Positions 1,135 through 40,356 of a DNA stretch of 57,915 bases are shown here, in pieces. Origin of the DNA: a virus. Lineage: Duplodnaviria > Caudoviricetes. Positions within the stretch are counted from its first letter, which is position 1; each line of letters opens with the position of its first letter. A program made the position numbers and the translations under genes. The notes below the pieces were generated by a model. The model was not told where the DNA came from, did no database searches, and saw only the letters and a list, made by a program, of their open reading frames with translations. The stretch lies in the IMG/VR virus record IMGVR_UViG_3300042480_000777, positions 1 through 57,915 of that record; one strand, given 5' to 3'.

Positions 1135-1548
1135 CTAGAGTCGAGGTGCGGCGTCTACGGACTCGATGAAGCCGCGGACGTCTCGCTTGATGGTGAACGT
1201 CCATGACTTCGGCGAGGCCGCGGGCGCCGAAACCCGCAGCTCGCGCAATCGTTCGGCGATGGCCTGAACCACCTTCTCGTTGCCGGACTCGATGGCCTGG
1301 GCCACCGGGTCCATGTCAAGGTGGATCTGGATCGTCTCTTGGGTCGCCACGACGGGCGACGGATCCGCGGGCGCGGGCTCGGCGGCCTGGGGCGTTGGCT
1401 GCTCGGGGGCCGGCTCGGGCGCAGGCTCGGGCTCGCGGCGCGAGACCTTGTCCATGGTCGTGTTGAACTTGCTGGCGCCGAGCTCGACCTGAGCACCGGC
1501 CGCCAGCGCCAATCGCTTGAGATCGGCCTGTGACTTGACTCGTCTCAT
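1135..1548 (-). CDS. Hypothetical protein with Pro/Glu linker
   Basis: ATG at 1548 overlaps the giant gene stop (ATGA); ends WTFTIKRDVRGFIESVDAAPRL. Confidence 0.7.
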   Translation of the reverse strand: MRRVKSQADLKRLALAAGAQVELGASKFNTTMDKVSRREPEPAPEPAPEQPTPQAAEPAPADPSPVVATQETIQIHLDMDPVAQAIESGNEKVVQAIAERLRELRVSAPAASPKSWTFTIKRDVRGFIESVDAAPRL

Positions 1549-4500
1549 TTCTTCAGGCACTCCAGCAGTTTGCCGATTGTAGCGATTCGCTGATTGTAGT
1601 CAGACAGCGCCTCGCCGGCGTCAACCGTGAGCCTGGCCTTTTCCCCGGTGTCCTCGACCTCGACTTCGTAGGTCACGCGCCGGCCGCGAGCTTGGGCTGG
1701 CGTGACCTCTTCGCGCTCCTGTGGTTGAGGCTCAGCGGCCTCCGGTGCGCGGTCGGCGGACTTCGTTACTTCTGAGGCGGCTGCTCCGGCGGCAGACTCC
1801 CCACCAGGAACCTCTGCTGCCGGTTCTGCTCGTTGAGCTCCATCCCCTGCAGTTGCTGCCGCAACAGCGTCACGAACGGAGCGTCCTTGCCAAGACGCTG
1901 CTCCATCGCGGCCAGATTGTTGCGCAGCATTTCGAGTTGAGTAGGCATTGATCGCGTCCTTGTATTCGTCGTTGAAGCGGGCGTCCACCTCGTAGTGGAA
2001 GAGTCCACCGAACGACACGCCAGGCAGCCTGTCGATCACCCGGTTGACGAGCTCCTGCAAGTCGCCGCGCGCCCCCTCCATCTTACCAACGATCTGTTGG
2101 TCCGTCAGCCCATTCCAGCTGCTATCGCCGTAGCGCGCATTGAACTCAGGCAGGTACATGATGCGCATGCCAACGGCCTTGGGCATGGCGCCGGAGAGCG
2201 CCTGCGGCGTGCGCCGGCCATCAACCACAACGGTGTAGCCGCCGATGCGGAAGTATCGATCGCTGCGGCCTTCGCCCTCGGGCTGCGCGCGCGGCACGGC
2301 GGTGCGCGCCACGCGGCGCATCATCTGCTCGACCTTGTCGGGGTCGGCTGAGTCGCGGAAGTAGATCTCCACACCCGGTCGGTGCAGGGTCAGGTCGACG
2401 TTTTCGTCGGGGCGCAGCACGCGAGCCACGAAGGCCGAGTCCTGGCGCTCGCGCTGCGCGACCTCAAAGGTCTTGGCCGCCAGCGGCAGCGGATTGAACC
2501 CGTCGCGGGCGATGAACTCGCCGTCGAAGGCGCGCTCCGGTGTGCCGTAGCGGCCCTCGGTGGAGTAGACCTTGGCGGCCACCAGTGAGCGGCCGTTGTC
2601 GCCCTTGTAGGCGGCGCCGTGGATTTCTTGCGCGACCTGCGCCTGCTTGGCGTCGGTCGGCACACTGGCCTGGCCCTGAATCTCAGAGGAGGACTGCACC
2701 GAAAGACCGAGGAAGAATCGATCCAAGGTACGAGACATGCGCGCGAGCTCGCGCAACGATGACTCCCGGGTGGCGCGCAGCTGCTCGGGCAGCGGGCGGT
2801 CGAAGGTCTTGGCCAGGCGTGCAGCCTCTTTCTTGAGGGCGCCGATCCGAGCGGTGACTTGCGCGGCACTGCGGCGCGACTTGGGCAGCCGCTCCAGGGT
2901 GACCGCGACTCGGGCCTTGAGTCCCTCAAGGCTGGTCTGCAACTTGGCCAGGGCCCGGTCGGACTTGGCCGATCCGTCGTTGCTCTTCTTGGCCTTGCGC
3001 ACTGCCGCGGTCATCTTGACCACGGCAGCCATGGCGGCGGCCGCATCCTGGTACGGCTCGAGCTCGTCTGCGATCTCGTAGATGCGGGCCTGAGCAACCT
3101 CCTTCTGCGCGCTGGTGGCGGAGATGGAGCTGTCGGCAATGCGCCTCAGTTCGCGCACCCGGGCCTGGTCCTTGACGCCGGCAAGGTCGGCCTCGAACTC
3201 GAACGAGCCGCCCTCTCCGGCGGCCGACGTCCAGTTGTTGCGCGTCCAGATCTCTTTCTCGACAAACCAGACCAGTGCTTGCAGGTCGTCGTCGTTGATC
3301 TTGCTGAGCACGTCGCTCTGGGCCATCTCAGCGTCGGCGCGCACCCACTGCACAGCCTGGGTGAACACGTCTTGCCCGAAGCCGAACTGCAGCGTGGCGT
3401 CACCCGAGGTCAGCATGCTGCCCGACACGCCGGTCTCGGCCATCGAGGCGATGCGCGGCCTGCCGGCGTTGCGCTGCAGGTTGCGCGCCGCCCACACGTC
3501 GATGGTGGCGCGGCCACGGAAGCCGATCAGATTGCCGCTGAAGTTCAGCGCCTTGGGCGCCGTGCCTCCGCGACCGATGTCCGGGTCGGCGTTCTTGACC
3601 ACGCGCCACAGGTCGATCATGGCGCGCACGACGTTCTGGCCGTTGAAACCGTACTTCTTGCCCGACTCCTTCGCCGGCAGCATGTCGTCGGGGAAGTTGC
3701 GCGCTTCCTTGGCGCGCTCGGCGAGCCACTGGTATTCGCCGAGCTCCTTGATCGCCTTCTTTGACATGCCGCGCTCGAGCATGGCATTGAAAAAGTCCTT
3801 GAACCGCGCCTCTATCTGGTCGACGTTGTCCGCCCAGGCGACCCATTTCGGCATGAGCTCATCGAAGTCGCCACGCAGTGCGCGGCGCAACGAGTCGATC
3901 GCGTTGTCCCAGTTGCCGCGCACCGGCGTGTTGGGGCTGGTGGCGCCCAGCAGGTCGGCGTACAGGTCACCCAGGCCGCCGAACTCGCGGCGCAGGCGCT
4001 CGCGCATGGCCTTGTACCAGGCCGCCTGGGCGATGATGTTGGAGGCTGCCTTGTCGCCAGCCTTGGCCCGCTCGTACACCTCACGAACGTCGGCCACCAA
4101 GCCACCAGCCACGCGCCTTACCGCCGCGTCGTACTCGGGCGTGCCAGGCTTGAGTGCGCGCCCATCAGGATCGGTGTTGAAGCTGTAGGGCACGTTCTCG
4201 TAGACGTACGCGACCTTCTGCTTGCCGCTGTCGTCAGTCTCGAGCTCGGCGCGCACGAACACCACCGGCGCCCAGCCGTTGCTCGGCGGGTGCGCCGCCT
4301 TGGCGTCGCGCACCGTGGCCTCAATCTCCTCGGCATCGAGGCCGGTATTGACCGCCGACTTCTCGATCGCCTTGCGCTCGGCGTCACTGAGCACCACGCG
4401 CGCGGCCACCACGCGCTCACCGCGCTCGGCCACCAGGTTGTGCAGGCTTACGTCGCCGACGCGGTCTTCGGTCTTGCGGATGTCGTCTTCGCTGACGCTG

Positions 4501-7500
4501 AAGACCCCGCCATTGAAGTCGGCGCTCTTGAGCTGGTTGGGCTCGAAGGCCACGAAGACGTCCGCCGGCTCGCCGCCGTACCCGGGGCCACCGCCGTCGT
4601 CCATGACGCTGCGAATGATGGCGCCGTCGTTACGCGACCGGCGCGCCCCGCGAACCACATCGTCGGTGGTCTCGTAGTTGTCGCCCGCGGGCTCGGCGGT
4701 GGCGCCGTCGTTTTCGCTGGCCAGGCGCTCGGCCTCTTCCTGCTCCAGGTACGCTCGCCCGTCATCGGTGTAGATGAGATCGCCATCGGCGTCGAGGACC
4801 TGGTACTGCCCATAGCGAGACCCGTCCCAGTTCGCGCCCTCGAAGTGCGACTCGCTGGGGTTGCGGATGTTGACGAACAGGGCGTAGATGCCAGGCTGGT
4901 CGCCGGCCTGCGGATCATCATCGGCGGGCTCCACCACGCGGCGCGCCCGGTTGCGGCGCACGTAGCTTGCCGCCATGCCTACGTCGTCGGTTGCGAAGAT
5001 GCCGAGGTCGCCGCGCTTCTCGCCGCCCGGCTCCTCAAAGGCCATGAAGCCGCCCTTGCCGCTGCCGTGGTAGACCACCAGCGGCTCGCCGTTCTCGTCG
5101 ACAGCCTTGGAGACCTCATCCAGCTGATCGCTCCAGACGCCACCCTCCTTGCCGGCGAACTTCTCCCAGTCGCCGAACCAGTTCTTGAACGACGGCGTGC
5201 GCACCTGCACCCACTGCCGCTCATTCAAGTTGCTGGGCGTGCCGTTCGGCGCCTTGAGCCACTGCTCAGTGCCCTTGAACTTGGCCTCAACTTCGGCGTA
5301 CTCGCGCTTGGCGCGATCGGCGGACTTGCGGATTTCCGGCCCCACCCCTCGGGCGATGCCGGCCAGGCCCTGCTTGTCCATGCCGACGGGACTCTTTGCG
5401 GCCGCCACGACGGCGGCCTTTGCATCGGCAAACCCCGGGTGCAGACCGTCGGGTAGGCTGTCTGGGCTAAACCACTGGGCGCTCGAGCTCTCCCAATTCA
5501 GCCGCGGGCCAAACTCGGACGGAACGGTGGCGATGAACGTGTTGTAGGTGGCGTTTCCAAACTTGACGGAGGCCACGGGCTCGAGCGCGATGTCGCCCGA
5601 GTAGCCGATCTCTTCCTTGGCTTCGCGGGTGGCAGCGTCAACGAGTGACTCGCCCTCATCAACGGCGCCACCAGGAATGCTCCAGGTGCCAGGGTTGGCG
5701 ACGCCAGGGCCACGCTTCGCAAGCAGAATGCGGCCAGTGTCGGCGGCGCGGAAAACGATGCCTGCAGCCTGCGGGCCCGCGGACTTGCGCTCGGAGCCCA
5801 TGATCTGGCGCACTCTTCGTACCAGCTCGTCCTTGTACATAGCCGCGTCGCCATTGAACGCGCCGATGTCCAGCAGCTGCGCAGCCTCCTCGGGCATCGT
5901 CGCCATCAGGATCTGCGCCCAGCGCGCGGGCGCGAGCGAGCCGGCCGGCAGGCTCTTGTTGGCGGCGATGCGATCGCCCAGGTCCATTTCGCGCGCCTTC
6001 GGGGCCGGAGCGGTGGCGGTCTCGTCGCCATCAATGCGTGAGCGCGGGCCGAGCACCTCGGGGGTGATGGTCTGCTTGCCGAGCAGGATGACCTGGCCGG
6101 GCTGCGTGCCCTCCAGGCGTGTGAGGTAGCCGCTGTAGCCGTTGTCGAGCACCTTCGACTCGAAGACCCGGGCGTTGCCGCCCTTGAGCTTGAGGGGGTC
6201 CGCGTCGGCGTCGTAGATGTTGGTGAGCGTGGCCTTGTGGGCAATGCCGCCCACACCAGACTCCGGCCGCACGCCGGTGCCCTTGTCGAAGTAGAAGGAC
6301 AACCTCTCGCGAATCCGTCCGTCTGCGGAGGACATGATCTCGTCGCGCGCGCTGCCCCTCAGGCCGGTGCCGAAGAACGAAGTCGACAGCGTCTTGCGCG
6401 GCTGCTGGCTGAAGTGGTAGCCGGTGACAGTGAGGCCCTCGGGGCGATCCTCGCTCTTGCGGATGTCGGGGTTCTCGGGGTCGTAGGTTCCCTGGTTGCC
6501 GATGGCGGACTTGATCTGCTCGGGGTCGAAGGTGATGAACTCGCGTGCGCCGGGATTCGACGAGCTTTCAACGATGAGCCCGTCGTGGCCCATTTCGCGC
6601 AATGCGTCTTGAAGTTGGCGGCCAACGTACCCCGTGTCTTCGCGGCGCATCCCGGCAATCAAACGCTGCGCTTTTTCGCGGGGAAGGATGTCGCGAATCA
6701 GGTCGAAGTTCGCTTCGTCGCCTGGGTCGCGCTCGTAGTAAGCGGGCTCGCGGTAGATGTACGGGCGCTCCATGCGCAGGTACACCGGCATGACGTTCTC
6801 GCCCTCGTCCGAGTTCAAGGCGTACTCATCGGCGAGCGTCGCGTCGTCCGTGAAGTACATGCCCTTGCCGTACCAGCCGCGGCGAGACGCGCGAAAGACT
6901 GTGATGTCCGCGCCCGTCCCGTGGTACACCACCAGCGGCCGGCCCCGACCGTCAACCACCTTGCTGTCACCGAACCACTTCTTGAACTCGGGCGTCTCGG
7001 TCTGGGCGCGGTCCTCCGACTTGCGGATGCCGGCGATCTTGGCCATCTCTCGGAAGCGCTGCACCACCTTCTTGTGGTGGTTGCCGATCGACATCTGGTC
7101 GACCTTCATCTTCGGCGTGCCGGTGATGTTCTTCGTCGTTTCGCGCCCGTCAACGAACTCGGTGGCCGACGTGATCAGCGCGCCGCCAGAGGTGCGCGTC
7201 TGCAGCAAGACGGGGATACCCTCGTCGCGCAGATCGGTTGTGGCGGACCAGTCGTTGAGGCCGTTCTTCTTGAGCTGCGTGTGGGCGCGCTTGACGCGGT
7301 CCTCGCTCTTCTTGAGCTGCTGCTCGGCGCGCAGCTGCTCCGCAGCCATCGCACGTTGCGACACGCCGGAGCTCTTGAGGTAGTCGGCCATGGCGTCGCG
7401 GAACGCGGCGCGCACTTGCTCGAGCTCCTTGACGAAGCTGTCGGCCTTGTAGCCTGGCCGCTGGGCTGCATCGAGAATGCGCGCGACCATGCGCTTGAAC

Positions 7501-10500
7501 AGCGCAGAGAGCTTGGCGATGATGCCCTTTGCGTTTGCGCCGTTCTCCTCCTGGATCTTCAGAAGCACCTCGCCCCAGAACGTCGGGTCCTTGAGCAGGT
7601 TGCCGCCCAGGTCGGACACGAGCTCCTCGAGCTCGCCGCCGCTTTGCTCGGACAGCGCCTCGCTGCCTTGCTCCCCGATCTTCAGGTCGGTGCGGCCGCT
7701 CTTGGCGACGAACTCCTTGGCATTCTTGGCCGCGCTCTTGCCACCAAAGGTCTTGACCGTCTTGCCGTCGGCATCGCGCACCACGACGCTGCCGTAGTAG
7801 TCCTTACGGAAGCTCTTGGGGTCAATGACGCGCTCGCGCACAACGGCGGCAATCGCGTTCCAGGCCTCGGGGTTGGTTTCGCGCAGGGTGTGGAAGAACT
7901 CGTGGCCGAACACCGCCAACGGGTTGATCGTGGTCTCGCTCGCCACGAAGAGCGTGTTGGGCTGGCCGGGGATCGCGAAGCCGTCAGCCAGGCGCTTTCC
8001 GTCGGCCTTGTAGAAGACGACCTGCTTGCCAAGCATGTCGGCGATGGTCTGAATCAGCTCTCCGTCCTCTTGTGACAGCGGGCTGGGTCCGCTGCCTCGC
8101 GGGGCGCTGGTCTGCTTCGGTAGCTCGCTGGCTCGAACCAGGCGCAGCTTGCGCTGCTCGCCGCCGTCGCTGACGTAGAAAAACTTGGGCTGGCCGTCGG
8201 CATCAGCCTGCTCGGCGGGCGCGAGGTTGGGCTGCGTGATGGCGGCCTCAACCGCAGCACCCGGCGCGGCTGCAGCTGTTGCCTCAGGGGCAACAGTTGT
8301 TGCGCTTTGCGCAACACCCGATCCAGCCGCCGGCTTCTTCGCCGCACGCGACTTGGCCCAGGTCTTGAACTGGCCAACGCTCATCTCGGTGATGGCGCCC
8401 AGGCCGGTCCAGCCCGGCTCGTAGTTGGCCAGGTAACCCTGGCGCGCCGCCTCTTCCGAGGTGAAGCCCATCATGACCTTGTGCTCGTCGAACGAGCCGT
8501 CCTCACTCACCTGGTCGATGACGAAGATCTTGTTGGTGTCAGGACGAGGGCCAATGAAAACATCCACAGGGTCGCCGTCGGCACCTTCCGTGCGCTTGAT
8601 TTCGCCATAGTGGTGAACCATTTTGGTTTCCCATGGCTTGGCTGCGCCTGGCTTGCTGCGACGAATGGAGCCCTCCGGATTCTCAATGGTGATGACGACA
8701 CCGTTGAGGTCAATCTTGTCGCCCTTCTTCCAGTTGTTGGCCTCAATGTTCCGAGCGGTGGGCTCGCTGCGATCGTTGAGCGGGCTGGTCGCGGCGGTGT
8801 TGGCCAGGGCGTCGACGCGATCCTTGATCGCCTTGCGCGCAAGCTGCGCATCAGCCGGGCCGTCGAGCCGGAACTTCTGGCCGGTCTTGGTGTTGGTGAG
8901 GAAGAACGTGTTGCCGTCGCGCGCCACGGTCTCGAAGCCGTTGTCGACCAGCTGACGCACGACGTTCGAGCGCTTGCGCAGGAAGGCGGGCTGATCGGTG
9001 TCGCCGCCCAGAGGGCCGGTGGCCTTGGCTGGCGCGGGAGCCGTGGTCAGGAAGTCCAACTCGTTGGGTTGCGACGCAACATTCGGTTGCGACGTGGGCG
9101 CAGCAGAGCCGGGGGTCGCGGGCGCGGCCTGCTCCAGGGCGGACGCGCCTTGCGCGCTCGGCGCGCCGGTCGGGGCCTGGTAGCGGCCGACGATCTCGAG
9201 CGCCTGCTGGGCGGCGTTGACGCGGACGGTGTTCTCGCCCTGGCTGTTGTTGGCCAGGTTGTAGAGGTAGAGCAGCTGCTGGCGATCCGGGTCCGAGATC
9301 TTGCCGCGCAAGCTCGGGTCGCGCAGGGCGCTGGCCACGGCGTTGAGCGATGGCACTTCGCGCGGCGCGGCCTCAGCCGACTCGACGGGCGCGAAGTCGG
9401 GGTTGTTCTGGATCGAGTCCATCGGCGCCGGCGGCGGCGCATCGCGATTGGCGAAGAAGGTGGCGGTCTCGACGCGCTCCAGCGCAGCCTCGCGCGCGGC
9501 GCGCGGGGCGTTGACGTTGCGGGCGAGCGCCATGTCGGCGAGCACCTCGCGCGAATCCAGGCCGTCCAGGCGCAGGTTGTCGAGCCAGCCCTCGGTGCGC
9601 ATGCCCTCCTCGAGGTTGCGCACGCGCTGCACCAGATCGTCGGCGGCCGGTGGGCGAGTGTCGGTTGGCGGAACTGCGCCGGCGGGCGGCACGGCGGGGC
9701 TGGCTGTGGCCGCGGCCGCAGACAGTGCGCCCGCATTGCCGGCCATGGCGGCGCGCGACAGCGGGCTGTTGGGCTCGGCAGCCTTGGCGGCCACAGGCTT
9801 GAGCTCGGGTGGCAGGCTCGGGCTGCTGGCGAAGCCGCCGACCGCGCCGACGGGGCCGCCCACAAGGGCGCCGCCCAGGAAGTCGCCGGCCGTGTTGCGC
9901 AGGGCGTTGTCGCCGGCGGCGCGGCCCAGGGCGATGTTCTCGCCGACGTTCTGGCCGACCTTCTCGGTGGTCTCCTGGCCGCCCTCGGCAATGCTGCCCA
10001 CGCCGCCGCCAATCGCGGCGCGCCCGGTGCGCGATGCCACCGAGTCGCCCAGCACGCGGGCCATGCCCTTCTTGGCAACGAAGTCCTCGAGCACGCGGGC
10101 ATTGAGGTAGCCGCCGGCCGCACCGAAGGCGGCAGCGCCAAGGCTGGCGTACTGCGCCGCCTGGTTGACCACGGCCTGGCGCGCAGACTGCTCGTCGCCG
10201 GTGGCGTTGAATGCTTCGGCGTAGGTCGGCACTTCGGCCAGGAGCTGCTCGTGGCTCATCTTGGCCAGCGTGGCCGCAGCCGACTGGCGCACGTCCTCTG
10301 CCGCGGCGCCGCCGGTCATGGCGCCGCCGGTGCCCACGCCGATGGCGCGCGAGGTGCGCGAGGCGGCCTCGGCGGCCTTGAACAGCTCCGCCGCCTTGGC
10401 GGCATCGCCGGCGGTCTCCGCGGCGCGCGCAGCCTTGGTGAGTGAGGCCACCCGGGCAGCCGGCCCCGCAATCGGAATCAGGGTCGTGGCGAGGGAGCCG

Positions 10501-11378
10501 AAGCTGCTGGCGGCCATCATCAGCCACCCATCGACACTGCCTGGAAGTCCAGCATCGCCAGACAGCAGGTCGACCACACTGCCCTCGACCCTGGCGTCGG
10601 CTCGCGCCTGCTTGCCGCCTTCGGTCATGGAGCCGCGCACGGACTCGGCGACCGGCGTGAGCGGATTGAAGCCCTCGTAGTCGTTGGTGCCGGTGACCTT
10701 GTTGGCCAACGCCGCCGCGCCTTCGCCGGCAAACTGAACCATGGAACCCACACCCGCAATGGCCGAGGCGGCGAACTCCTTGCCGAAGTCGGTGAGGGTG
10801 GCCTTCTCGCGCTCTTTGGCGGCGTCGACGTACTCCTGGCCAGTGGGTGAGACGAACTCACCCTTCTTCGCCGCCGGCGCACCCGCGCCGACCTTGCGCA
10901 GGATCGAGGGCACGTACTGCTGCGTCTCGCGCGGCATGTACTGCAGCCAGGCCTCAGGCGTGCCGTTCTTCTCGGCGGTGGCCAGAGCGGTGCGCAGGCG
11001 TTGCGGGCCCGCGTTGTAAGCGGCCAGGGCGCGGGCGGTGTCGCCGTCGAAGTCCTGCAGCTGACGGTTGTAGTAGGCGCGACCCAGGGCCTTGTTGTAC
11101 TCCGGGTCGGTGCGGTAGCGCATCTCGTCGTACTCGAGGCCGGCGAGCTTGGCCGCCTCGGGCGCGGTGGCCGGCATGACCTGCGCAATACCAATGGCCC
11201 CCGCCTTGCTGGTCAGCGGCGCACCGCTCTTGTCGAACTGCTTGCCGCCAGACTCCTGGCCGAGCAGCGCGTCAAAGACTCGGTCCTGGCTCGGGCCGGC
11301 AGGCTGGCCACTGGCCCCGCCAGCAGGGCCGAAGGAGTCCAGGGCCTTGCCGAGTGCGATGTCGAAGATGTCTGCCAT
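1545..11378 (-). CDS. Giant polyvalent internal virion/ejection protein (lytic transglycosylase, InPase-like, zincin metallopeptidase, ART-like domains, Nudix, glycosylase-like)
   Basis: 3277-aa ORF. SLT motifs QESGG/GIAQVMP/AYNAGP/ETQQYV; IENPEGS..HYGEI..GADGDPVDVF..FDEHKVM; HEFFH; two FKxWFGD..PLVVYHG domains; Nudix box GAVDEGESLVDAATREAKEEIG; TIDVW..LQALVW. Confidence 0.92.
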   Translation of the reverse strand: MADIFDIALGKALDSFGPAGGASGQPAGPSQDRVFDALLGQESGGKQFDKSGAPLTSKAGAIGIAQVMPATAPEAAKLAGLEYDEMRYRTDPEYNKALGRAYYNRQLQDFDGDTARALAAYNAGPQRLRTALATAEKNGTPEAWLQYMPRETQQYVPSILRKVGAGAPAAKKGEFVSPTGQEYVDAAKEREKATLTDFGKEFAASAIAGVGSMVQFAGEGAAALANKVTGTNDYEGFNPLTPVAESVRGSMTEGGKQARADARVEGSVVDLLSGDAGLPGSVDGWLMMAASSFGSLATTLIPIAGPAARVASLTKAARAAETAGDAAKAAELFKAAEAASRTSRAIGVGTGGAMTGGAAAEDVRQSAAATLAKMSHEQLLAEVPTYAEAFNATGDEQSARQAVVNQAAQYASLGAAAFGAAGGYLNARVLEDFVAKKGMARVLGDSVASRTGRAAIGGGVGSIAEGGQETTEKVGQNVGENIALGRAAGDNALRNTAGDFLGGALVGGPVGAVGGFASSPSLPPELKPVAAKAAEPNSPLSRAAMAGNAGALSAAAATASPAVPPAGAVPPTDTRPPAADDLVQRVRNLEEGMRTEGWLDNLRLDGLDSREVLADMALARNVNAPRAAREAALERVETATFFANRDAPPPAPMDSIQNNPDFAPVESAEAAPREVPSLNAVASALRDPSLRGKISDPDRQQLLYLYNLANNSQGENTVRVNAAQQALEIVGRYQAPTGAPSAQGASALEQAAPATPGSAAPTSQPNVASQPNELDFLTTAPAPAKATGPLGGDTDQPAFLRKRSNVVRQLVDNGFETVARDGNTFFLTNTKTGQKFRLDGPADAQLARKAIKDRVDALANTAATSPLNDRSEPTARNIEANNWKKGDKIDLNGVVITIENPEGSIRRSKPGAAKPWETKMVHHYGEIKRTEGADGDPVDVFIGPRPDTNKIFVIDQVSEDGSFDEHKVMMGFTSEEAARQGYLANYEPGWTGLGAITEMSVGQFKTWAKSRAAKKPAAGSGVAQSATTVAPEATAAAAPGAAVEAAITQPNLAPAEQADADGQPKFFYVSDGGEQRKLRLVRASELPKQTSAPRGSGPSPLSQEDGELIQTIADMLGKQVVFYKADGKRLADGFAIPGQPNTLFVASETTINPLAVFGHEFFHTLRETNPEAWNAIAAVVRERVIDPKSFRKDYYGSVVVRDADGKTVKTFGGKSAAKNAKEFVAKSGRTDLKIGEQGSEALSEQSGGELEELVSDLGGNLLKDPTFWGEVLLKIQEENGANAKGIIAKLSALFKRMVARILDAAQRPGYKADSFVKELEQVRAAFRDAMADYLKSSGVSQRAMAAEQLRAEQQLKKSEDRVKRAHTQLKKNGLNDWSATTDLRDEGIPVLLQTRTSGGALITSATEFVDGRETTKNITGTPKMKVDQMSIGNHHKKVVQRFREMAKIAGIRKSEDRAQTETPEFKKWFGDSKVVDGRGRPLVVYHGTGADITVFRASRRGWYGKGMYFTDDATLADEYALNSDEGENVMPVYLRMERPYIYREPAYYERDPGDEANFDLIRDILPREKAQRLIAGMRREDTGYVGRQLQDALREMGHDGLIVESSSNPGAREFITFDPEQIKSAIGNQGTYDPENPDIRKSEDRPEGLTVTGYHFSQQPRKTLSTSFFGTGLRGSARDEIMSSADGRIRERLSFYFDKGTGVRPESGVGGIAHKATLTNIYDADADPLKLKGGNARVFESKVLDNGYSGYLTRLEGTQPGQVILLGKQTITPEVLGPRSRIDGDETATAPAPKAREMDLGDRIAANKSLPAGSLAPARWAQILMATMPEEAAQLLDIGAFNGDAAMYKDELVRRVRQIMGSERKSAGPQAAGIVFRAADTGRILLAKRGPGVANPGTWSIPGGAVDEGESLVDAATREAKEEIGYSGDIALEPVASVKFGNATYNTFIATVPSEFGPRLNWESSSAQWFSPDSLPDGLHPGFADAKAAVVAAAKSPVGMDKQGLAGIARGVGPEIRKSADRAKREYAEVEAKFKGTEQWLKAPNGTPSNLNERQWVQVRTPSFKNWFGDWEKFAGKEGGVWSDQLDEVSKAVDENGEPLVVYHGSGKGGFMAFEEPGGEKRGDLGIFATDDVGMAASYVRRNRARRVVEPADDDPQAGDQPGIYALFVNIRNPSESHFEGANWDGSRYGQYQVLDADGDLIYTDDGRAYLEQEEAERLASENDGATAEPAGDNYETTDDVVRGARRSRNDGAIIRSVMDDGGGPGYGGEPADVFVAFEPNQLKSADFNGGVFSVSEDDIRKTEDRVGDVSLHNLVAERGERVVAARVVLSDAERKAIEKSAVNTGLDAEEIEATVRDAKAAHPPSNGWAPVVFVRAELETDDSGKQKVAYVYENVPYSFNTDPDGRALKPGTPEYDAAVRRVAGGLVADVREVYERAKAGDKAASNIIAQAAWYKAMRERLRREFGGLGDLYADLLGATSPNTPVRGNWDNAIDSLRRALRGDFDELMPKWVAWADNVDQIEARFKDFFNAMLERGMSKKAIKELGEYQWLAERAKEARNFPDDMLPAKESGKKYGFNGQNVVRAMIDLWRVVKNADPDIGRGGTAPKALNFSGNLIGFRGRATIDVWAARNLQRNAGRPRIASMAETGVSGSMLTSGDATLQFGFGQDVFTQAVQWVRADAEMAQSDVLSKINDDDLQALVWFVEKEIWTRNNWTSAAGEGGSFEFEADLAGVKDQARVRELRRIADSSISATSAQKEVAQARIYEIADELEPYQDAAAAMAAVVKMTAAVRKAKKSNDGSAKSDRALAKLQTSLEGLKARVAVTLERLPKSRRSAAQVTARIGALKKEAARLAKTFDRPLPEQLRATRESSLRELARMSRTLDRFFLGLSVQSSSEIQGQASVPTDAKQAQVAQEIHGAAYKGDNGRSLVAAKVYSTEGRYGTPERAFDGEFIARDGFNPLPLAAKTFEVAQRERQDSAFVARVLRPDENVDLTLHRPGVEIYFRDSADPDKVEQMMRRVARTAVPRAQPEGEGRSDRYFRIGGYTVVVDGRRTPQALSGAMPKAVGMRIMYLPEFNARYGDSSWNGLTDQQIVGKMEGARGDLQELVNRVIDRLPGVSFGGLFHYEVDARFNDEYKDAINAYSTRNAAQQSGRDGAASWQGRSVRDAVAAATAGDGAQRAEPAAEVPGGESAAGAAASEVTKSADRAPEAAEPQPQEREEVTPAQARGRRVTYEVEVEDTGEKARLTVDAGEALSDYNQRIATIGKLLECLKK
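1766..1948 (-). CDS. Overprinted 60-aa helical protein nested out of frame in the giant gene
   Basis: AAGGA 8 nt before ATG; MPTQLEMLRNNLAAMEQRLGKDAPFVTLLRQQLQGMELNEQNRQQRFLVGSLPPEQPPQK; G/C-ending codons fall in this frame rather than the host-gene frame over this interval. Confidence 0.65.
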   Translation of the reverse strand: MPTQLEMLRNNLAAMEQRLGKDAPFVTLLRQQLQGMELNEQNRQQRFLVGSLPPEQPPQK

Positions 11379-15819: not shown

Positions 15820-16349
15820 AGTCTCCCCGGAGAGCTGGCCGCACCGAGGGCCGAGCCCGGTTTGGTGGGCCAGGTGAGGCTGAAGGGGTCGGGGCCCTGA
15901 GCGGTGATGTCGCGCAGCGCCTGGCGGTACTCAACCCATTCGCTTGGAGTTGGCTGCCCCCGCTCCGATGACCGGGCAACAATCCAGTCGGACTCAGCAA
16001 GGAGTGATTCGCGCAGCTTGCGCACCTCGATCCACTTCTTGCGGACAGCCTCCGCTTGACCAACGGTTCGACTGGTCCCCGGGAGCCAGCGCACCCACCC
16101 CGCTGGCGGCGCCTCGTCGAAACGAGAGGCGCGGAAAACCTCGTCCGTGTTGGCCGGGTTGTACCAGGCGTGACCGCGGTAGTCGGGCGTCGCAACCCAC
16201 CGGCCAGAGATCCACCTCCACCGCTCGAGGTCGGCGAGCGGAGCGCTTGGCAGCGGCACAGTGACCACGCGATCGCGGCCGGCCGGATCAACTGCCTCGG
16301 CGGCGATGTAGCCGCGATGGAAGGAGTCGCCGTCAATGGTTGGCAGCAT
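15816..16349 (-). CDS. Tail fibre assembly chaperone
   Basis: VRKLRESLLAESDW..WVEYRQALRDIT..WPTKP signature; TGATG coupling to the upstream fibre gene. Confidence 0.85.
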   Translation of the reverse strand: MLPTIDGDSFHRGYIAAEAVDPAGRDRVVTVPLPSAPLADLERWRWISGRWVATPDYRGHAWYNPANTDEVFRASRFDEAPPAGWVRWLPGTSRTVGQAEAVRKKWIEVRKLRESLLAESDWIVARSSERGQPTPSEWVEYRQALRDITAQGPDPFSLTWPTKPGSALGAASSPGRL

Positions 16350-18718
16350 CACAGCTTGTACAGTGACCATGAGATTAGAGGGACCCTGAATGACGTGAAA
16401 GAGCCCGACACCAGCTTGATCTTGTAGTCGAACTTGAGCACCACACGAAAGTCGTTGGGGAACGATCCGCTGTTGGAGTACGTGCGGTAGATCGAAGCCT
16501 GGCCCACAAGCATGAGCTGGAATGTGGACCCATTGGCCCCAGACCATTCGCGAAATTGTGACCCGGTGAAGCTGCAGGCAACGTAATACGGCTGGTTTGC
16601 CGTCGCGCTCAGAATGTCGTAGTTGTAGATGTTGGTTTCGACGGTCTCATAGATGGACCCGGTGAAGATCGTGCCAACCGCGAATGGTGTGAAGTATGAG
16701 CCGCCCTTGGAGTCGTAGCCGCCGTACCCTCCAGCGATGACGGAGGTTGAGTCAAGAGCTCCAGACTCCAGAACCTTTCTGCGCCGAATGTCGATCAAGT
16801 CCGCAACAACTTCCCCGGTGCTGCTGACGGTGAACTTGTCGGAGATGTTCAGCGTGCCGCCGGATGAGTCGTACTGAAGGAACATCCCGGAGAAGTAGTT
16901 CCCGAGAAGAAGTCCTGAAGGGCCGATGTAGAAGCCGTGCCCGTTGACCCACGAGTAGCCCGTGTACGCCCCGCCAACAAGCGACCCCCGCAGGACGGCG
17001 TCCTGAAAGACGGCTTTGCCGCCCTTGCCAATGGCCCAGCCGGAGGTCCCGCTTGAGCTGATTACGCCGCCTGCGCCAATGACTCCATTGAAGTTTGAAG
17101 ACTGAATGAAGTCGCCGATGTAGGCATTGCCAATCGCTCCGGCGGCGATGTACGTGCTGACGTTGCCGGTATTGATCTGGTTGATGGTGGCAAAGCCGCC
17201 CAGGCCGGTCACCTGGCCGGTCGCGACCGTGTTCTGCGTTGCGAGTGCGCCGAGGCCCGTGACCGCCGTCGACGGCACGCCCCCAGAAGACAGGAGGACG
17301 CTGTCGTTGGCGCCGTAGACGGTGATGTTGCGGAAGGTGCCGGAGGTCGCGTTGATGTTGCCGGTAACATTCAGCGCGATGCCGTTCCAGTTCATGTTCT
17401 GCGTGGGCGATCCCACGTAGAACTTGTACGCTCCGGCGTCGGCGCCCAGGAAGAATCCGGTGCCGAAGTTGGCCGACGCAAAGGGCTGCAGCAGCTGGCC
17501 GAAGGTGCCGTTCGCGGTGTCGCTGCTGACGGCCACGCCGCCCCAGAGCTTGCCGGTGGTCAGGCCGAGCGCGGCGCTCACGGAGCCGGCGGTGATCTTG
17601 TCGGCAGTCAGACTGCCGATCTGTGCGCTGGCGATCGTGGCATTGGCGATGAACGCGGTGTCGATCCATGTGCCCGCCGGGTAGACCTTGCCGTTGATCG
17701 TGGTCTGCGTGGTGGTGACAACGAACGGCTGTCGAGACGGGCTGAGCGTGCCCAGCGGGTCATTCGTGTCGTTGGCGCCGGCGATCGCGAAGCGGTCGGC
17801 GCGCACAATGAACGCCGACGTGGGCGCTCCGTTGGCCAAGGTGCTCGCAAGGCCGAAGCCGGAGACGTGCCCGTTGACGTCGACCTTGACGCTGTACTGG
17901 GCCTCGAGGCCTGTGACCTTGCCTGCGGTGGCGCTGCTTTCGACCTTGACGGCAGAGTAGTCGCCAGTGTCCAGGCGGGCCTGCACTTGAGAGACCGACA
18001 ACGCAATGGCGTCATCGGCATCCGAGCGAGCAATCGATTCGGCAAGAATCCTGCTGGAGACGCTGTTCGTCAGCGTTGCCGGCCCATCGATCAGGTCGAT
18101 GCGGGCGCCAAGCGAGGAGTACAGCTGGGTTTCCGTGATCTGGCCGGAGAGGGTCTCGAGCATGTAGTCCACGGCGAGCGGCGTGGTCGCACTGACGCCG
18201 CCGGACTGGCTGTATGGGCCGGCAACGTCGGCGCTCGAGACAAACCGAATCCAGTAGTGGTGCGTGGTGCCCGGAGAGACCGAGTCCGCATAGACATTGC
18301 TGAGGGTGGTTCCGATCCTGGCCGCATCCCCGAGGGACGCGGACTCAGCCCTCCAGATCTCGGTGTACGAGTGGTTGCGGTACGGCGCGCCATCCCACGA
18401 GAGGTAGACGCTGCTGAGCCCAGCGCTGGCGGACAGGCCGGTGGGCGCGGGAGGGGGGGTGTAGTCCCTGGTGGGGTCGTAGCCATCGACGTTCGTCGGC
18501 ACCGTGACTGGAACCCTTGCTCCGCTGGTGAGGGCCGATGTGCCGCTCGCGCTGAGGGCGCCGATGTCGACGAGATCGCGAAGCGTGACGAGCTGGTCCA
18601 GCGCGTCGCCAACGCGACCCTCGCGCACGTCGAGGGTCGACTTGATGGCCAGGACGACATCCTTGAGGTTGTCGCCCCGAATGTCCGGGATGGCCGGAAC
18701 CAGGGTCTCTCGATTCAT
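16349..18718 (-). CDS. Tail tip/fibre protein (FN3 plus DUF1983/J-like region)
   Basis: PPAPTGLSA..LSWD..YWIRFV (FN3); QYSVKVDVNGHVSGFGL..FIVRADRFAI; AFIANATIASAQIGSLTADKI. Confidence 0.85.
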   Translation of the reverse strand: MNRETLVPAIPDIRGDNLKDVVLAIKSTLDVREGRVGDALDQLVTLRDLVDIGALSASGTSALTSGARVPVTVPTNVDGYDPTRDYTPPPAPTGLSASAGLSSVYLSWDGAPYRNHSYTEIWRAESASLGDAARIGTTLSNVYADSVSPGTTHHYWIRFVSSADVAGPYSQSGGVSATTPLAVDYMLETLSGQITETQLYSSLGARIDLIDGPATLTNSVSSRILAESIARSDADDAIALSVSQVQARLDTGDYSAVKVESSATAGKVTGLEAQYSVKVDVNGHVSGFGLASTLANGAPTSAFIVRADRFAIAGANDTNDPLGTLSPSRQPFVVTTTQTTINGKVYPAGTWIDTAFIANATIASAQIGSLTADKITAGSVSAALGLTTGKLWGGVAVSSDTANGTFGQLLQPFASANFGTGFFLGADAGAYKFYVGSPTQNMNWNGIALNVTGNINATSGTFRNITVYGANDSVLLSSGGVPSTAVTGLGALATQNTVATGQVTGLGGFATINQINTGNVSTYIAAGAIGNAYIGDFIQSSNFNGVIGAGGVISSSGTSGWAIGKGGKAVFQDAVLRGSLVGGAYTGYSWVNGHGFYIGPSGLLLGNYFSGMFLQYDSSGGTLNISDKFTVSSTGEVVADLIDIRRRKVLESGALDSTSVIAGGYGGYDSKGGSYFTPFAVGTIFTGSIYETVETNIYNYDILSATANQPYYVACSFTGSQFREWSGANGSTFQLMLVGQASIYRTYSNSGSFPNDFRVVLKFDYKIKLVSGSFTSFRVPLISWSLYKL

Positions 18719-20319
18719 GTCGCCTTGAGCTCCGCCGCGCTGGTGGCAAGGTTGACCTCAGATACCTCCACGGACGCCTCGACCTCGATTTCCCAGTCTC
18801 GGGCGCGGAAACCGCCGGGCAGCGTGAAGTGCTGGTCGCCTGTGACGACCTGTGAGGCCCTGAGCTGGCCGTTGGCATACACCCGAATGGTCACCGGGTA
18901 GCTTGCCGCGATCACCTGCCCCACGGCCATGCTCTGGGCCCACGGCAGGCGGAACAGCTTGCTGCGCCAGGTGGCCGTCAGCGGGCTGCCCCGATCGAAG
19001 CGCGCAATGCTGTTGCCCTGCGCCACGTACAGCGTGTCGGTGGACGGGTCGTAGTACCCACCAGAGAACGCCGAGGCGGCATTCAGGTTGGAGGTCGTGA
19101 GGACGGCACCCTGGCCGGTCAGATCGAGGACCAGCATACCGCTGGCGTGGACGATGTGGACGCGACCGTTGTAGAGGTAGGCGTCCATGGACGCAGGCGT
19201 GTAGGCCTGCCACTGCTCGCGAGAGAACAGGCTCTTGGTGATGACGTCCACGCCGGAGCCAAGCGAGACGTAGCCATCGGGCGAGGCATAGAGCACGCCG
19301 TCGCCGGTCTCGATGATCGAGCGCTTGGACGAGCACGCCTGCGGCACCTCGAGCCTGGTGGGCGTCATTGCGGCCGGGTCCGCGCCCTGCAGCAGGAAGG
19401 GGTAGGCGGTGGTGAGCACGGCAACGGTCTGGCCGTAGGTGGCGATGCCCACGATGTCGAAGTCGATGGTGTACTTGTGAGGCCAAGCGTGTGGCAGGTT
19501 GGGCTCACTGAAGTACACCGTGCGCCCAGCAAAGCCGACGGCGGCCCCGTTGGCCATCGCGCGCAGGCCCTTGAGGCCGGCCGGGGGCGCCTCCCAACCT
19601 TCGCTGGGTAGCAACTCGCCCAGGTTCGCCTGAGCCACGGTGTCGATGTAGCTGGACTGAGCCACGGGCACTTCGGCCACGTACTGAAACTGCGCCGTGT
19701 TGCCGACGGTGGACGAGCGGTAGATGCGCTTGAGGGTGATGTTGTAGTTGCCCGACGGTGCCGACGGCATCGACACCGTGACCGCGGCGCCCGGATCGAG
19801 CGCGACCACAGGGGATGGACCAGACGGCGGCCCCTCCTCGCCGTACGCGGAGACGTAGGTGATGACGTACGTGCGGCTTTCCGGCGTCACGCCAGTGCCT
19901 GCGGTGCCGTGCCCGGTGATCGCTGGCGCGGACGGCGCCGGCAGCCCAAGCTGGTAGTGGGCGCCGGGGTAGGTGCTGCCGGAGATGATGAGCGAGTTCG
20001 GCGCGTACCTCGGGGACGAAAGCCCGTCGGCCCAGTACAACCTGTCCCACTGGTCGTCGGGGATCGGCGAGCGCATGACGTCCGTGTCGTTGCCGAACTC
20101 CAGCCAGTAGTTGGCCTCGTTCGCCCCGGTGCCGTAGCGGTAGATGGTCTTGGGAGAGATCAGGGTTGCCGGCTTGAGGATCGTCGTCGCGCGCAGCGGC
20201 TCGAGCGACCCAGAGATCAGCTTCACGTTCTGCGCGACCTGCGCGTCGCTGTCGGCGAGGCGGTGCGGCTTGATGACCGGCTTCAGGCCATTGAAGGCCT
20301 TGACGGAGAGAAGCGTCAT
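18715..20319 (-). CDS. Tail tubular/nozzle (stabilization) protein
   Basis: 534 aa; YVITYVSAYGEEGPPS, YFSEPNLPHAWP, WRSKLF motifs typical of podovirus tail proteins. Confidence 0.75.
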   Translation of the reverse strand: MTLLSVKAFNGLKPVIKPHRLADSDAQVAQNVKLISGSLEPLRATTILKPATLISPKTIYRYGTGANEANYWLEFGNDTDVMRSPIPDDQWDRLYWADGLSSPRYAPNSLIISGSTYPGAHYQLGLPAPSAPAITGHGTAGTGVTPESRTYVITYVSAYGEEGPPSGPSPVVALDPGAAVTVSMPSAPSGNYNITLKRIYRSSTVGNTAQFQYVAEVPVAQSSYIDTVAQANLGELLPSEGWEAPPAGLKGLRAMANGAAVGFAGRTVYFSEPNLPHAWPHKYTIDFDIVGIATYGQTVAVLTTAYPFLLQGADPAAMTPTRLEVPQACSSKRSIIETGDGVLYASPDGYVSLGSGVDVITKSLFSREQWQAYTPASMDAYLYNGRVHIVHASGMLVLDLTGQGAVLTTSNLNAASAFSGGYYDPSTDTLYVAQGNSIARFDRGSPLTATWRSKLFRLPWAQSMAVGQVIAASYPVTIRVYANGQLRASQVVTGDQHFTLPGGFRARDWEIEVEASVEVSEVNLATSAAELKAT

Positions 20320-32514: not shown

Positions 32515-33498
32515 TCAGGCGGTGGCGGCCACTTCCCCGCGCACCATCCAGCTGTCATTCAGGATGACGCAGGTCTGCATCGCCTTCCAGGCGACGTGAC
32601 CACGCTGGGCCAGCGGATCGGAGTCGCTGGGCTTGGGGTTCACGACCATCGGCGTCAGGGCGAACATGCCCTTCAGCGCGACGATGCCGTAAGCGTCCCG
32701 GCCCAGGAACAGCACCGGGTACACGTCGGCGCTGGTGCCGGTCGTGGACAGCATGGTGCCCTTGGCGCCGCCGGCGTCGGCGAACGGCTCGAAGATGGTC
32801 GAGGACACGTAGCGCACGTCCTCCACCTTGCCGAGCTCGTTCTCCCACGGGGTCATCGTGCCGTACTTCTCAGCAGGCACGAAGCCGGTCAGGCCGCGCA
32901 CGTCAGCCTCGCAGTCCGGGTGGATCAGGGCGACGAAGCCAGGAGCCACGTTCTCGGTGCCGAAGGACGGCGTCGAGCGGATGACGGAGGTGATGAAGCG
33001 CGCGTTCTGGCGCTTCAGGGCACGCACAGCACGGCGCTGCAGCGTGATGCTGATCGCGGTGTTGACGGCGTTGCGGGCAGCGCCGTTGGCGTACAGCACG
33101 TTCGTGCCAGCCTTCAGCACGCCGAAGCGCATCTTCTCGATCATCTGCGCCGCCTGCTCGCCCAGCAAGGCCACCGACTCGTTCAGGGTCGGGTCCTCGT
33201 GGGTGTCCAGGATCACGTCGGTGATGGTCACCTTGTCGCCGTACTGGGCGAGGGTGGCCGTCACGTCGGTCACCGCCAGCGTCTGGCCGGCAGGCGTCAC
33301 GCCTTCGGACAGGGTCGTCGGGGTGTTCGGCAGCGCGTTGTAGCGGCGGAACTTGATGACCTTGGTGCTGGCCTCAGGCAGGGCCTTGGCTTGGCCAAAC
33401 TTCTCCAGCACCAGGTAGGGGATGCCGCGCTTCAGCAGTTCTTTCTCTGCGTAGGCAGCGGTACGGGGCGAAATGTCGCCGTATGCGGTCTGAGCCAT
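32515..33498 (-). CDS. Major capsid protein, N4-gp56 family
   Basis: LVLEKFGQ..IKFRRY..LSEGVTP..QYG..ENELGKVEDVRY..DPLAQRGHVAWK; GAAAGGA RBS. Confidence 0.92.
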   Translation of the reverse strand: MAQTAYGDISPRTAAYAEKELLKRGIPYLVLEKFGQAKALPEASTKVIKFRRYNALPNTPTTLSEGVTPAGQTLAVTDVTATLAQYGDKVTITDVILDTHEDPTLNESVALLGEQAAQMIEKMRFGVLKAGTNVLYANGAARNAVNTAISITLQRRAVRALKRQNARFITSVIRSTPSFGTENVAPGFVALIHPDCEADVRGLTGFVPAEKYGTMTPWENELGKVEDVRYVSSTIFEPFADAGGAKGTMLSTTGTSADVYPVLFLGRDAYGIVALKGMFALTPMVVNPKPSDSDPLAQRGHVAWKAMQTCVILNDSWMVRGEVAATA

Positions 33499-34988: not shown

Positions 34989-35234
34989 TCAAACTATCGG
35001 CAGGGGCTGCTGCCCGCGCAGCGTTGCGCGAATGGCCAGCGTCTGCTTCAGGTGCGCCTGCACGCGCTGCAGCTCATCGACAGAGACGTCGGCCAGCTGC
35101 GCGCGGTAGACGTCGGCCAGGCTCGAGAGCATCTTGTCGATGTGCACAAGCGGGTCGGCGCCGCGGAACTCGGCCACGGCAGTGGAGGCGCTCTGCAGCT
35201 CGCGAATGGCGACCATGCCTGCGTCTTCCATCAC
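34989..35234 (-). CDS. Small helical protein after the portal gene
   Basis: 81 aa, start overlaps the portal stop. Confidence 0.7.
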   Translation of the reverse strand: MMEDAGMVAIRELQSASTAVAEFRGADPLVHIDKMLSSLADVYRAQLADVSVDELQRVQAHLKQTLAIRATLRGQQPLPIV

Positions 35235-39700: not shown

Positions 39701-40356
39701 CAGTCCTCCGCGGCCTGAACCCGGCGCAGCATCTCCTCGAACTCACCGGCGGACTTCTTCTCGGCATCCAGGCCGAAGATCTTGCGCTGCAGCGGCAGGT
39801 ACACGCCGTGGCTGCCAGCGACCTCCTTGGCCATCTTCACTCGCCCGGCCAGGCTGATGATGTAGCGGTACAGCTCATTGACCTTGTCGGTCTTCCACGC
39901 GCCGTTGGCCGTTGGTCCCGACTCATCCATCGCGTCGGCGATCGCCTCGAGAGCGGCGCGGAACTTCGGGTCGCCCAGCGTCACCAGCTCCTGCAGCTGA
40001 TTGCGGCTGTTGTCGATGGCCAGCTTCACGTCCTCGCGCTGGATCTGATCGACCGACGCCACGATGTCGGCGTACTTGTCGACCACCTGCGCATCGGTCA
40101 GCTTGGCCTCTTTGGTTTCCAAGCCGGTTTGGTAACTCGCCTTGGTAACCGCGGCCTTGGTAACCTTCTCTTTCGCTTTGGCCTGAATCTTTTCGCTCAG
40201 GTCGCGCGTCCAGCCGTACTGCTTGGCCTTCTTCTGGATCGCCACATGGGACACCCCACGCTCTTCGGCGATCTGCCTCAGTGTCTTGATGCCGGCCCGG
40301 TAGTCCTTCTCGATGAGCTCCCAGTCGATCGGCTGCCTATCCGCCTTGCCGGTCAT
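39700..40356 (-). CDS. terS: Terminase small subunit
   Basis: DWELIEKDYRAGIKTLRQIA..GVSHVAIQKKAKQYGWTRDL HTH; directly upstream of terL. Confidence 0.85.
   Translation of the reverse strand: MTGKADRQPIDWELIEKDYRAGIKTLRQIAEERGVSHVAIQKKAKQYGWTRDLSEKIQAKAKEKVTKAAVTKASYQTGLETKEAKLTDAQVVDKYADIVASVDQIQREDVKLAIDNSRNQLQELVTLGDPKFRAALEAIADAMDESGPTANGAWKTDKVNELYRYIISLAGRVKMAKEVAGSHGVYLPLQRKIFGLDAEKKSAGEFEEMLRRVQAAED

Follow-up and report, generated by a model that had tools for sequence, protein, structure and literature searches.

A conserved small gene nested in the +1 frame of a giant polyvalent-protein gene of a lake phage, and its probable read-through as a linker

Introduction

Small phage genes that are embedded in the +1 frame of a longer gene, on the same strand and with their own start, are known from Rz1, found inside Rz of lambda, and 18.7, found inside 18.5 of T7, and in both cases both products are made. 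Here, we describe a small open reading frame (ORF) of 60 codons embedded in the same way in a gene for a polyvalent protein of 3277 amino acids (aa), directly behind a conserved module that we call domain X. The sequence is a 57,915 nucleotide (nt) stretch of DNA from a lake phage (Duplodnaviria; Caudoviricetes; IMG/VR virus record IMGVR_UViG_3300042480_000777, positions 1 to 57,915), which is referred to as the window and whose coordinates are used throughout. An earlier reading of this DNA (the original prediction) described the ORF as a gene overprinted inside the giant gene and encoding an inhibitor, antitoxin or chaperone for the effector domain that precedes it. The features that are needed to follow the comparison are listed here.

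1545–11378, minus strand: giant polyvalent gene, one ORF of 3277 codons with SLT, InPase, two ART-PolyVal, NUDIX, domain X and a C-terminal tail
1950–4475, minus strand: domain X, a conserved module of 842 aa that always precedes the small gene and has relatives encoded in 254 IMG/VR stretches
1766–1948, minus strand: small gene of 60 codons and a TAA, +1 relative to the giant gene (ATG at 1948–1946, TAA at 1768–1766)
1957–1961, minus strand: Shine-Dalgarno (SD)-like AAGGA, 8 nt 5' of the ATG
1764–1949, minus strand: read-through linker of the giant frame, 62 codons, rich in G, A and R and dual-coded with the small gene

Like Rz1 and 18.7, the small gene has a start of its own and lies entirely within a longer gene on the same strand, in the +1 frame. 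It differs from both in that the host gene encodes a polyvalent protein of 3277 aa, and in that the embedded frame, rather than that of the host, has the genome-typical codons. Rz1 is a secreted lipoprotein with a lipobox cysteine that works together with Rz as a spanin, whereas the product predicted here has no cysteine, no signal peptide and no hydrophobic N-terminus and so does not qualify as an o-spanin of the Rz1 type. The overprinted genes of phiX174 (E in D and B in A) are similar in being dual-coded out of phase, with one frame codon-typical and the other not. However, the new-looking frame at this locus is the linker of the large protein, apparently derived from read-through of a resident small gene, and would not represent a new small gene born inside an old one.

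Two further systems share parts of the arrangement. The tail assembly chaperones G and GT are produced by a programmed -1 frameshift and there is no independent start in the second frame. The likeness lies in a conserved two-frame arrangement beside a very long virion protein gene, but at this locus an ATG and an SD sequence are conserved and any shift would have to be +1. In polymorphic toxin/immunity cassettes (CdiA-CT/CdiI and Rhs), a C-terminal module is followed by a small gene with which it forms a mobile unit that is inherited as a whole. The small gene is likewise found directly behind a module, and the two are inherited together across different contexts. In contrast to those cassettes, no toxin identity was detected for domain X, the small protein has no immunity match, the gene is overlapping or nested and the enzymatic modules of the giant gene are without partners.

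The giant gene itself falls into a described class. It contains SLT, InPase (PF18823), ART-PolyVal (PF18760, in two stretches) and NUDIX domains detected with Pfam and, with several unrelated effector or enzymatic domains that include polyvalent-specific ones, it encodes a polyvalent protein as this class was defined (Iyer et al. 2017, PMC5512222). The architectures given there are similar in combining ART-PolyVal, InPase, NUDIX and SLT in one polypeptide and in their association with a virion module, but a gene nested between modules is absent from the part of the description available to us, in which the words 'overlap' and 'frameshift' both have 0 occurrences; the supplements might list domain X under another name. 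Similarly, no nested or overlapping gene within a polyvalent gene was found described in the portion of the polyvalent-protein literature that was covered. Nested +1 genes in phages are already known from Rz1 and phiX174, and the arrangement is not a new principle. What is new is the protein family, its place inside polyvalent genes and an apparent fusion of modules across a live gene.

A small ORF in the shifted frame

The AAGGA element, the ATG, the shift in frame and a TAA located 2 nt before the codons of a KSADR motif, all of which had been noted in the original prediction, were each confirmed. The motif and the segment that follows it complete the giant gene.

1749–1763, minus strand: KSADR codons, the last copy of the motif, with AAG starting at 1763, 2 nt past the TAA of the small gene
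1545–1748, minus strand: C-terminal tail of the giant protein including the stop, about 70 aa, in which the G+C content at the third codon position (GC3) is back up at 0.72–0.80

The difference in codon composition between the two frames that had been noted earlier was also seen. The G+C content at codon positions 1/2/3 is 0.72/0.33/0.82 in the small frame and 0.79/0.71/0.34 in the giant frame over the same 62 codons, compared with 0.68/0.49/0.86 for the giant gene as a whole. When the giant gene was scanned in 3217 in-frame windows of 61 codons, GC3 was below 0.5 in only 52, and all 52 start between 2012 and 1859 and hence form a single block. The peptide read in the giant frame over the small gene is of low complexity and rich in G, A and R: NAYSTRNAAQQSGRDGAASWQGRSVRDAVAAATAGDGAQRAEPAAEVPGGESAAGAAASEVT. 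In lake-metagenome contigs, zero insertions or deletions were found over 1545–2200 in 4/4 runs. As these contigs are independent, the frame structure is not an assembly artefact.

A second, weaker dip in GC3 was seen at approximately 8363–8200 (minus strand), in an Ala-rich linker after the InPase module. A nested gene at this position was considered and rejected, as the alternative-frame ORF in the window (8054–8377) reads as R/P/S-rich junk.

Occurrence of the small ORF in relatives of domain X

Relatives were retrieved using only the preceding domain, which kept the set free of any bias towards loci with a small ORF. A search with the C-terminal 251 aa of domain X (1950–2702 in the window), followed by one with a profile made from them, yielded 104 loci; in IMG/VR, 254 stretches match domain X and the best 80 of the 254 were kept. 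Together with the nearest relative (L001) and the window, this gave 106 sources from about 99 different contigs. A hidden Markov model (HMM) built from 13 of the small peptides was then run on all forward-frame translations, and a match was found directly behind domain X in 104 of the 106 sources, in the +1 frame in 103. A homologous +1 ORF was scored automatically in 103 of the 105 assessable sources, and in 105/105 after inspection by eye. L070 had been scored as frame 0 because its domain is broken upstream but is locally +1, and L019 includes a divergent +1 ORF of the same build. The sequence of L010 ends before the site and it was not assessable. Stop codons in this frame or a loss of its conservation in homologues, the outcome that the original prediction gave as evidence against a gene, were therefore not encountered.

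The association also holds in the other direction. When the most conserved pattern of the small peptide was used as the query, 36 loci were recovered from IMG/VR and 36/36 are on contigs that contain domain X (names matched by eye), and the proposal that the small gene travels with the preceding domain is borne out by both searches.

The small peptides include 83 distinct sequences. The ORF is nested in 56 and partly overlaps the domain-X gene by 17–152 nt in 27, and there are 0 outside an overlap. The start is ATG in 83/83, where the background frequency of ATG is 0.027 per codon, and an SD core (GGAG, GAGG or AGGA) is present at -16 to -4 in 68/83, compared with 0.11 in the control; this count covers all 83 distinct homologues and not the nested set alone. 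The C-terminal tails vary in length, with ORFs of 50–144 aa.

Members of the family are also present among the proteins predicted by gene callers. One search produced 84 matches of 51–215 aa without a Pfam domain, and an exhaustive search produced 413 cluster representatives with E ≤0.001. Among the top 150 of the 413 representatives, 147 are 51–201 aa long and the match mostly begins at residue 1. The remaining three are long proteins with 7–13 matching stretches each, of which the two inspected are repeat proteins (the third is P0198). In these collections, members of the family are short stand-alone proteins that are named only as 'hypothetical'. An in-frame fusion to domain X was not found in 8000 candidates of 253–2000 aa, which is weak evidence, nor was one seen among the top 150 matches of the exhaustive search, with P0198 uninspected. 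One member of 61 aa (P0032) has the source name 'predicted HAD superfamily phosphohydrolase YqeG', a name that, given the size of the protein, is almost certainly wrong.

No cultured phage in the INPHARED copy used was found to match the region tested. In the cultured-phage and plasmid records, a blastn search with 1545–2700 gave no match, and tblastn searches with the small peptide (E ≤1) and with domain X of the window and of L072 were empty.

Selection on the two frames

To locate the frame under selection, differences were counted by small-frame codon phase (1/2/3) in 25 non-overlapping sequence pairs.

60 codons preceding the ATG: 156/526/213, maximum at the third position of the giant frame
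All pairs, codons 1–36 of the small ORF: 132/105/210, maximum at the third position of the small frame and minimum at that of the giant frame
Nested pairs only: 111/92/160, maximum at the third position of the small frame and minimum at that of the giant frame
Partly overlapping pairs only: 21/13/50, maximum at the third position of the small frame

The phase of the differences flips at the ATG, which indicates that selection passes there from the giant frame to the small frame. Together with the ATG and SD conservation, this upholds the earlier view of the shifted ORF as a genuine gene, which is under selection and has start signals of its own, and we consider it very probable, on this comparative evidence, that it is a real, separately translated and conserved nested gene overlaid by a read-through linker.

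The giant frame is open across the small ORF in 56/56 distinct nested sequences. When the small ORF was shuffled synonymously using the local codon usage, the giant frame stayed open with a mean probability of 0.15 (0.24 for the window). As openness in all 56 sequences is not expected from the shuffles, it is maintained, and the stretch is truly dual-coding. The giant frame codes on both sides of the small gene, and the modules downstream are recognizable in relatives.

Another +1 ORF with an ATG start, about 60 codons long, was observed directly 3' of the small gene in L003 (3390–3578) and at the same place in L037 and L040. It is probably not coding, judging from the giant-frame motif PL.GAP...GPDPRLV, which is better conserved there. 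An 'IRAEALRRLKV' extension at the C-terminus of the small ORF in L001, L003 and L035 was considered as a second conserved +1 element and was rejected because the giant-frame motif is the one that is kept where the two disagree.

Two arrangements of the locus

An unrooted tree of the C-terminal part of domain X (85 rows) separates two arrangements. In clade 1 (34 rows), the domain-X gene stops 17–152 nt inside the small ORF in 31 and just after it in three. In clade 2, whose 51 rows include the window, the small ORF is nested along its full length and the giant frame continues, in some cases for only a few codons and in others into further real modules, such as a domain matching phrog_3170 (L001, L003, L007 and L014) or a segment with an HExxH motif (L004). 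Two changes suffice to account for the distribution of nested and partial overlaps on the tree. In L008–L013, domain X is a stand-alone gene of about 900 aa. As domain X and the small gene are found together both in giant genes and in this stand-alone form, they behave as one cassette that occurs in several contexts.

In overprinted pairs, codon usage has been used to distinguish the ancestral frame from the new one (Pavesi et al. 2013, PMC3744397). By this criterion the linker is the younger, since the small frame is genome-typical and conserved across the family while the giant-frame reading is atypical, of low complexity and absent in one clade. It is thus the giant gene that probably reads over a small gene already in place. 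An 'overprinted' gene inside the giant gene would be the opposite situation, and the direction given in the original prediction is probably wrong.

No neighbour of the small gene other than domain X is constant. The downstream neighbour varies and may be TerL, an acidic protein, another virion-like ORF or a further polyvalent module. The next ORF has a TerL-like N-terminus in 7/27 distinct partly overlapping loci, and that of L083 was confirmed as a large terminase (phrog_3717, E 3e-56).

The small protein and domain X

The structure predicted for the small protein is a hairpin of two helices (residues 4–19 and 24–50) followed by a loose tail. The mean predicted local distance difference test (pLDDT) score is 83.8, reaching 91–95 over the first 40 residues. 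The helical product suggested earlier is therefore borne out by structure prediction. The family consensus includes helix 1 (..Q.E.L...L..LE), a loop (G.D.P[FY]V), helix 2 (..LK.QIA..E) and the motif [YF]xxG[MST]. No match to the small protein was found in Pfam, PHROGs, PADLOC or NCBIfam, and no similarity to any antitoxin, immunity or defence family was detected in the same four collections. The best match to a PDB sequence had an E value of 0.25, and a fold search with the hairpin retrieved only generic helical matches (E >2). When 79 members of the family were compared with Pfam, there were 0 consistent families, and the commonest was matched by three members with E values of at least 0.015, as expected by chance. 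Judged by these searches, the small protein represents a family of small proteins that had not been named before.

Domain X is equally without named relatives, as searches of Pfam, PHROGs, PADLOC, NCBIfam and PDB sequences gave no match. The motif RPGVEIYFRD is invariant in the alignments. The AlphaFold2 model (pLDDT 73.2) is helical with an alpha/beta part at the C-terminus, which has a weak likeness to ferredoxin-like/ABM folds (E 7e-3). In the fold search, 0/357 PDB matches had E ≤0.001, and in BFVD only uncharacterised proteins of uncultured phages were matched. No toxin or enzyme signature was detected in these family, sequence and fold searches.

Variation at the cassette junction

The window and L001 are 98–100% identical over approximately 2.4 kb except for a patch (2100–1861) where the identity is 60–78%. 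This patch takes in the end of domain X together with helix 1 of the small protein, and is followed by a 60 nt block that is nearly identical and then by the cassette junction. Related variants are present in the lake metagenomes, where two runs (X7 and X8) contain both the form found in the window and a form that has diverged over 1886–2075, at similar depth. A second variant was found in the same runs, again at similar depth.

1886–2075: polymorphic patch, same length but diverged, taking in the final 42 codons of domain X and the opening 21 of the small gene
1677–1789: segment that a co-occurring variant exchanges for an extra domain of about 1 kb, with the joint at 1676/1790 in a 1134 nt contig (runs X7 and X8)

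The replacement variant matches the architecture of L001 and alters the end of the small ORF. Cassette variants therefore co-exist in one population. In L001, the small ORF is 108 codons long and runs across an IRRSADR motif that is read in the giant frame. A stop just before the KSADR codons, to which the original prediction had attached significance, is present in the window but is not general, and given the longer ORF of the L001-type variant it is an accident of the cassette junction rather than a conserved feature. The very C-terminus of L001 shares the tail of the giant protein of the window but it is placed behind an extra domain.

The KSADR motif is one of six copies of K[ST][EA]DR in the giant protein, which are found at domain borders, mostly as IRKSEDR; five are IRK[ST][EA]DR. 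L001 has IRKTEDR and IRRSADR at matching places. From its position, the motif may be a processing site or a recombination joint.

7310, 7022, 6458, 5327, 4475 and 1763, minus strand: first base of the K codon of each K[ST][EA]DR copy, at the borders between modules

Interpretation and alternatives

The account that we favour, and consider probable as a whole, is as follows. Ribosomes would start internally at the SD sequence and ATG of the small gene and produce the hairpin protein, while ribosomes translating the giant ORF would read the same DNA one base out of phase and produce a flexible linker of low complexity. In clade 1, the small gene is just the gene that comes next, with an overlap at the end of the domain-X gene. 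In the clade that includes the window, the domain-X frame lacks a stop there and runs through the small gene into further modules; in the window itself the linker would join domain X to the KSADR motif and the 70-aa tail. Over the 183 nt that are dual-coding, the small frame would dictate the sequence and the giant frame would merely be kept open.

The small protein would then act with domain X as a non-covalent partner, for instance as a folding or assembly chaperone, a subunit or a regulator. This role is suggested because domain X is the sole invariant neighbour and because the small gene is placed for co-production with it. We give the small protein a little less than an even chance of being a binding partner of domain X.

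Several observations weigh against this account or parts of it. The tree is unrooted and does not polarize the two arrangements. The rule used to choose starts favoured ATG, and one pick (L104) is 21 codons off the expected start. The enrichment of differences at the third position of the small frame is weaker in nested pairs (160 versus about 100) than in partly overlapping pairs (50 versus about 17) or the upstream control (526 versus about 185). This weaker contrast could reflect dual constraint, but selection on the small protein could also be relaxed in its nested state. Within the nested clade, the pattern W.GR.[VI]R.G.E.A.R is kept in the giant-frame peptide, which we read as a by-product of small-frame conservation while also allowing for a function of its own. 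Finally, the evidence for a partnership with domain X is gene order only.

An unlikely alternative, though the strongest of those considered, is that the small protein has its own job in virion assembly or DNA packaging and is found behind domain X only through a conserved order of structural genes. The window includes a podovirus-like structural module (16349–40356), and the giant gene is located at its end.

39700–40356: TerS, 218 aa (phrog_1206, E 9e-40), adjoining TerL
38165–39700: TerL
35231–37573: portal/adaptor
32515–33498: major head protein
18715–20319: internal virion protein
16349–18718: tail fibre

This location, and the TerL-like ORFs that follow the small gene in the 7/27 partly overlapping loci with the confirmed case in L083, are consistent with such a role. 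However, the downstream neighbour varies and only domain X is constant, the window has a separate TerS of 218 aa beside TerL, and domain X and the small gene behave as one cassette whether in giant genes or behind the stand-alone gene of about 900 aa. The more specific idea that the small ORF is a small terminase, which came from the TerL found after the ORF in L083, was rejected for the window as there was no PHROG match, TerS is separate in the window and TerL is adjacent in only seven of the 27.

Less probable still is the proposal that the cassette carries, in the small protein, an inhibitor, antitoxin or immunity protein cognate to the preceding effector, which it would neutralise in the producing cell. 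This would be one form of the partnership with domain X suggested above. The small gene is directly downstream of domain X and strictly co-inherited with it, as immunity genes are behind the domains of polymorphic toxins. A small helical fold, as modelled, would be compatible with a binder, and the patch that has diverged between the closest relatives includes helix 1 of the small protein as well as the end of domain X. Against this, domain X has no detectable toxin or enzyme signature, and the family of the small protein is rather well conserved, whereas immunity proteins are usually hypervariable. No known antitoxin family was matched, with no consistent family among the 79 members. In addition, the enzymatic cassettes of the giant gene (ART-PolyVal in two stretches, NUDIX and InPase) have no embedded partner ORF, which speaks against a general design in which each enzyme travels with its immunity protein.

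It is very improbable that the small ORF of the nested clade is a dead relic, now serving only as linker DNA, in which the frame signature was inherited rather than maintained. The weaker third-position enrichment in nested pairs and the variable tails of the small ORF (50–144 aa) would fit a relic. However, 56/56 distinct nested sequences retain an open small frame and an ATG across a deep clade, conservation extends to the hairpin core and to [YF]xxG[MST], and the counts for nested pairs alone (111/92/160) are the opposite of those expected from selection on the giant frame only.

Least credible of all is that the peptide is an alternative C-terminus of domain X made by programmed +1 ribosomal frameshifting, since although the frame is +1 and, as in prfB, a +1 shift could in principle be stimulated by the SD-like element that immediately precedes it, an ATG is found at the same position in 83/83 (background 0.027 per codon), there is no zero-frame stop and no conserved slippery site at the junction, and the family is called as stand-alone proteins with matches mostly from residue 1 and no fused forms found.

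The gene that follows the giant gene

The TGA of the giant gene overlaps the ATG of the following ORF (1135–1548/1560, around 1545–1560, minus strand) as ATGA, which suggests that translation of the giant gene may be coupled to that of the following gene. No PHROG match was found for this ORF.

Significance

Gene callers skip genes that are nested out of frame, and the family is consequently invisible in the genomes of the nested clade and surfaces in databases only where the overlap is short or a contig is broken. The locus provides a well-supported natural case of dual coding in a large gene of a double-stranded DNA phage, with about 100 contigs available for comparison. It also provides a handle on the widespread domain X through its obligatory small companion, and a hint at how giant polyvalent proteins are constructed, namely by reading through a resident gene instead of displacing it.

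A more tentative extension is that domain X and the small gene form an obligatory-partner cassette, with the small protein as chaperone, subunit or inhibitor, and that polyvalent genes grew by losing the stop of domain X and reading through the gene of its partner, which in the -1 phase would become a linker. Codons would have been selected to keep the giant frame open, and the linker might itself be functional, for example as a processing site like KSADR. If true, 'fusion across a live gene' would be a new route by which genes are joined, and the hidden phage proteins, which standard gene callers overlook, would form a new class.

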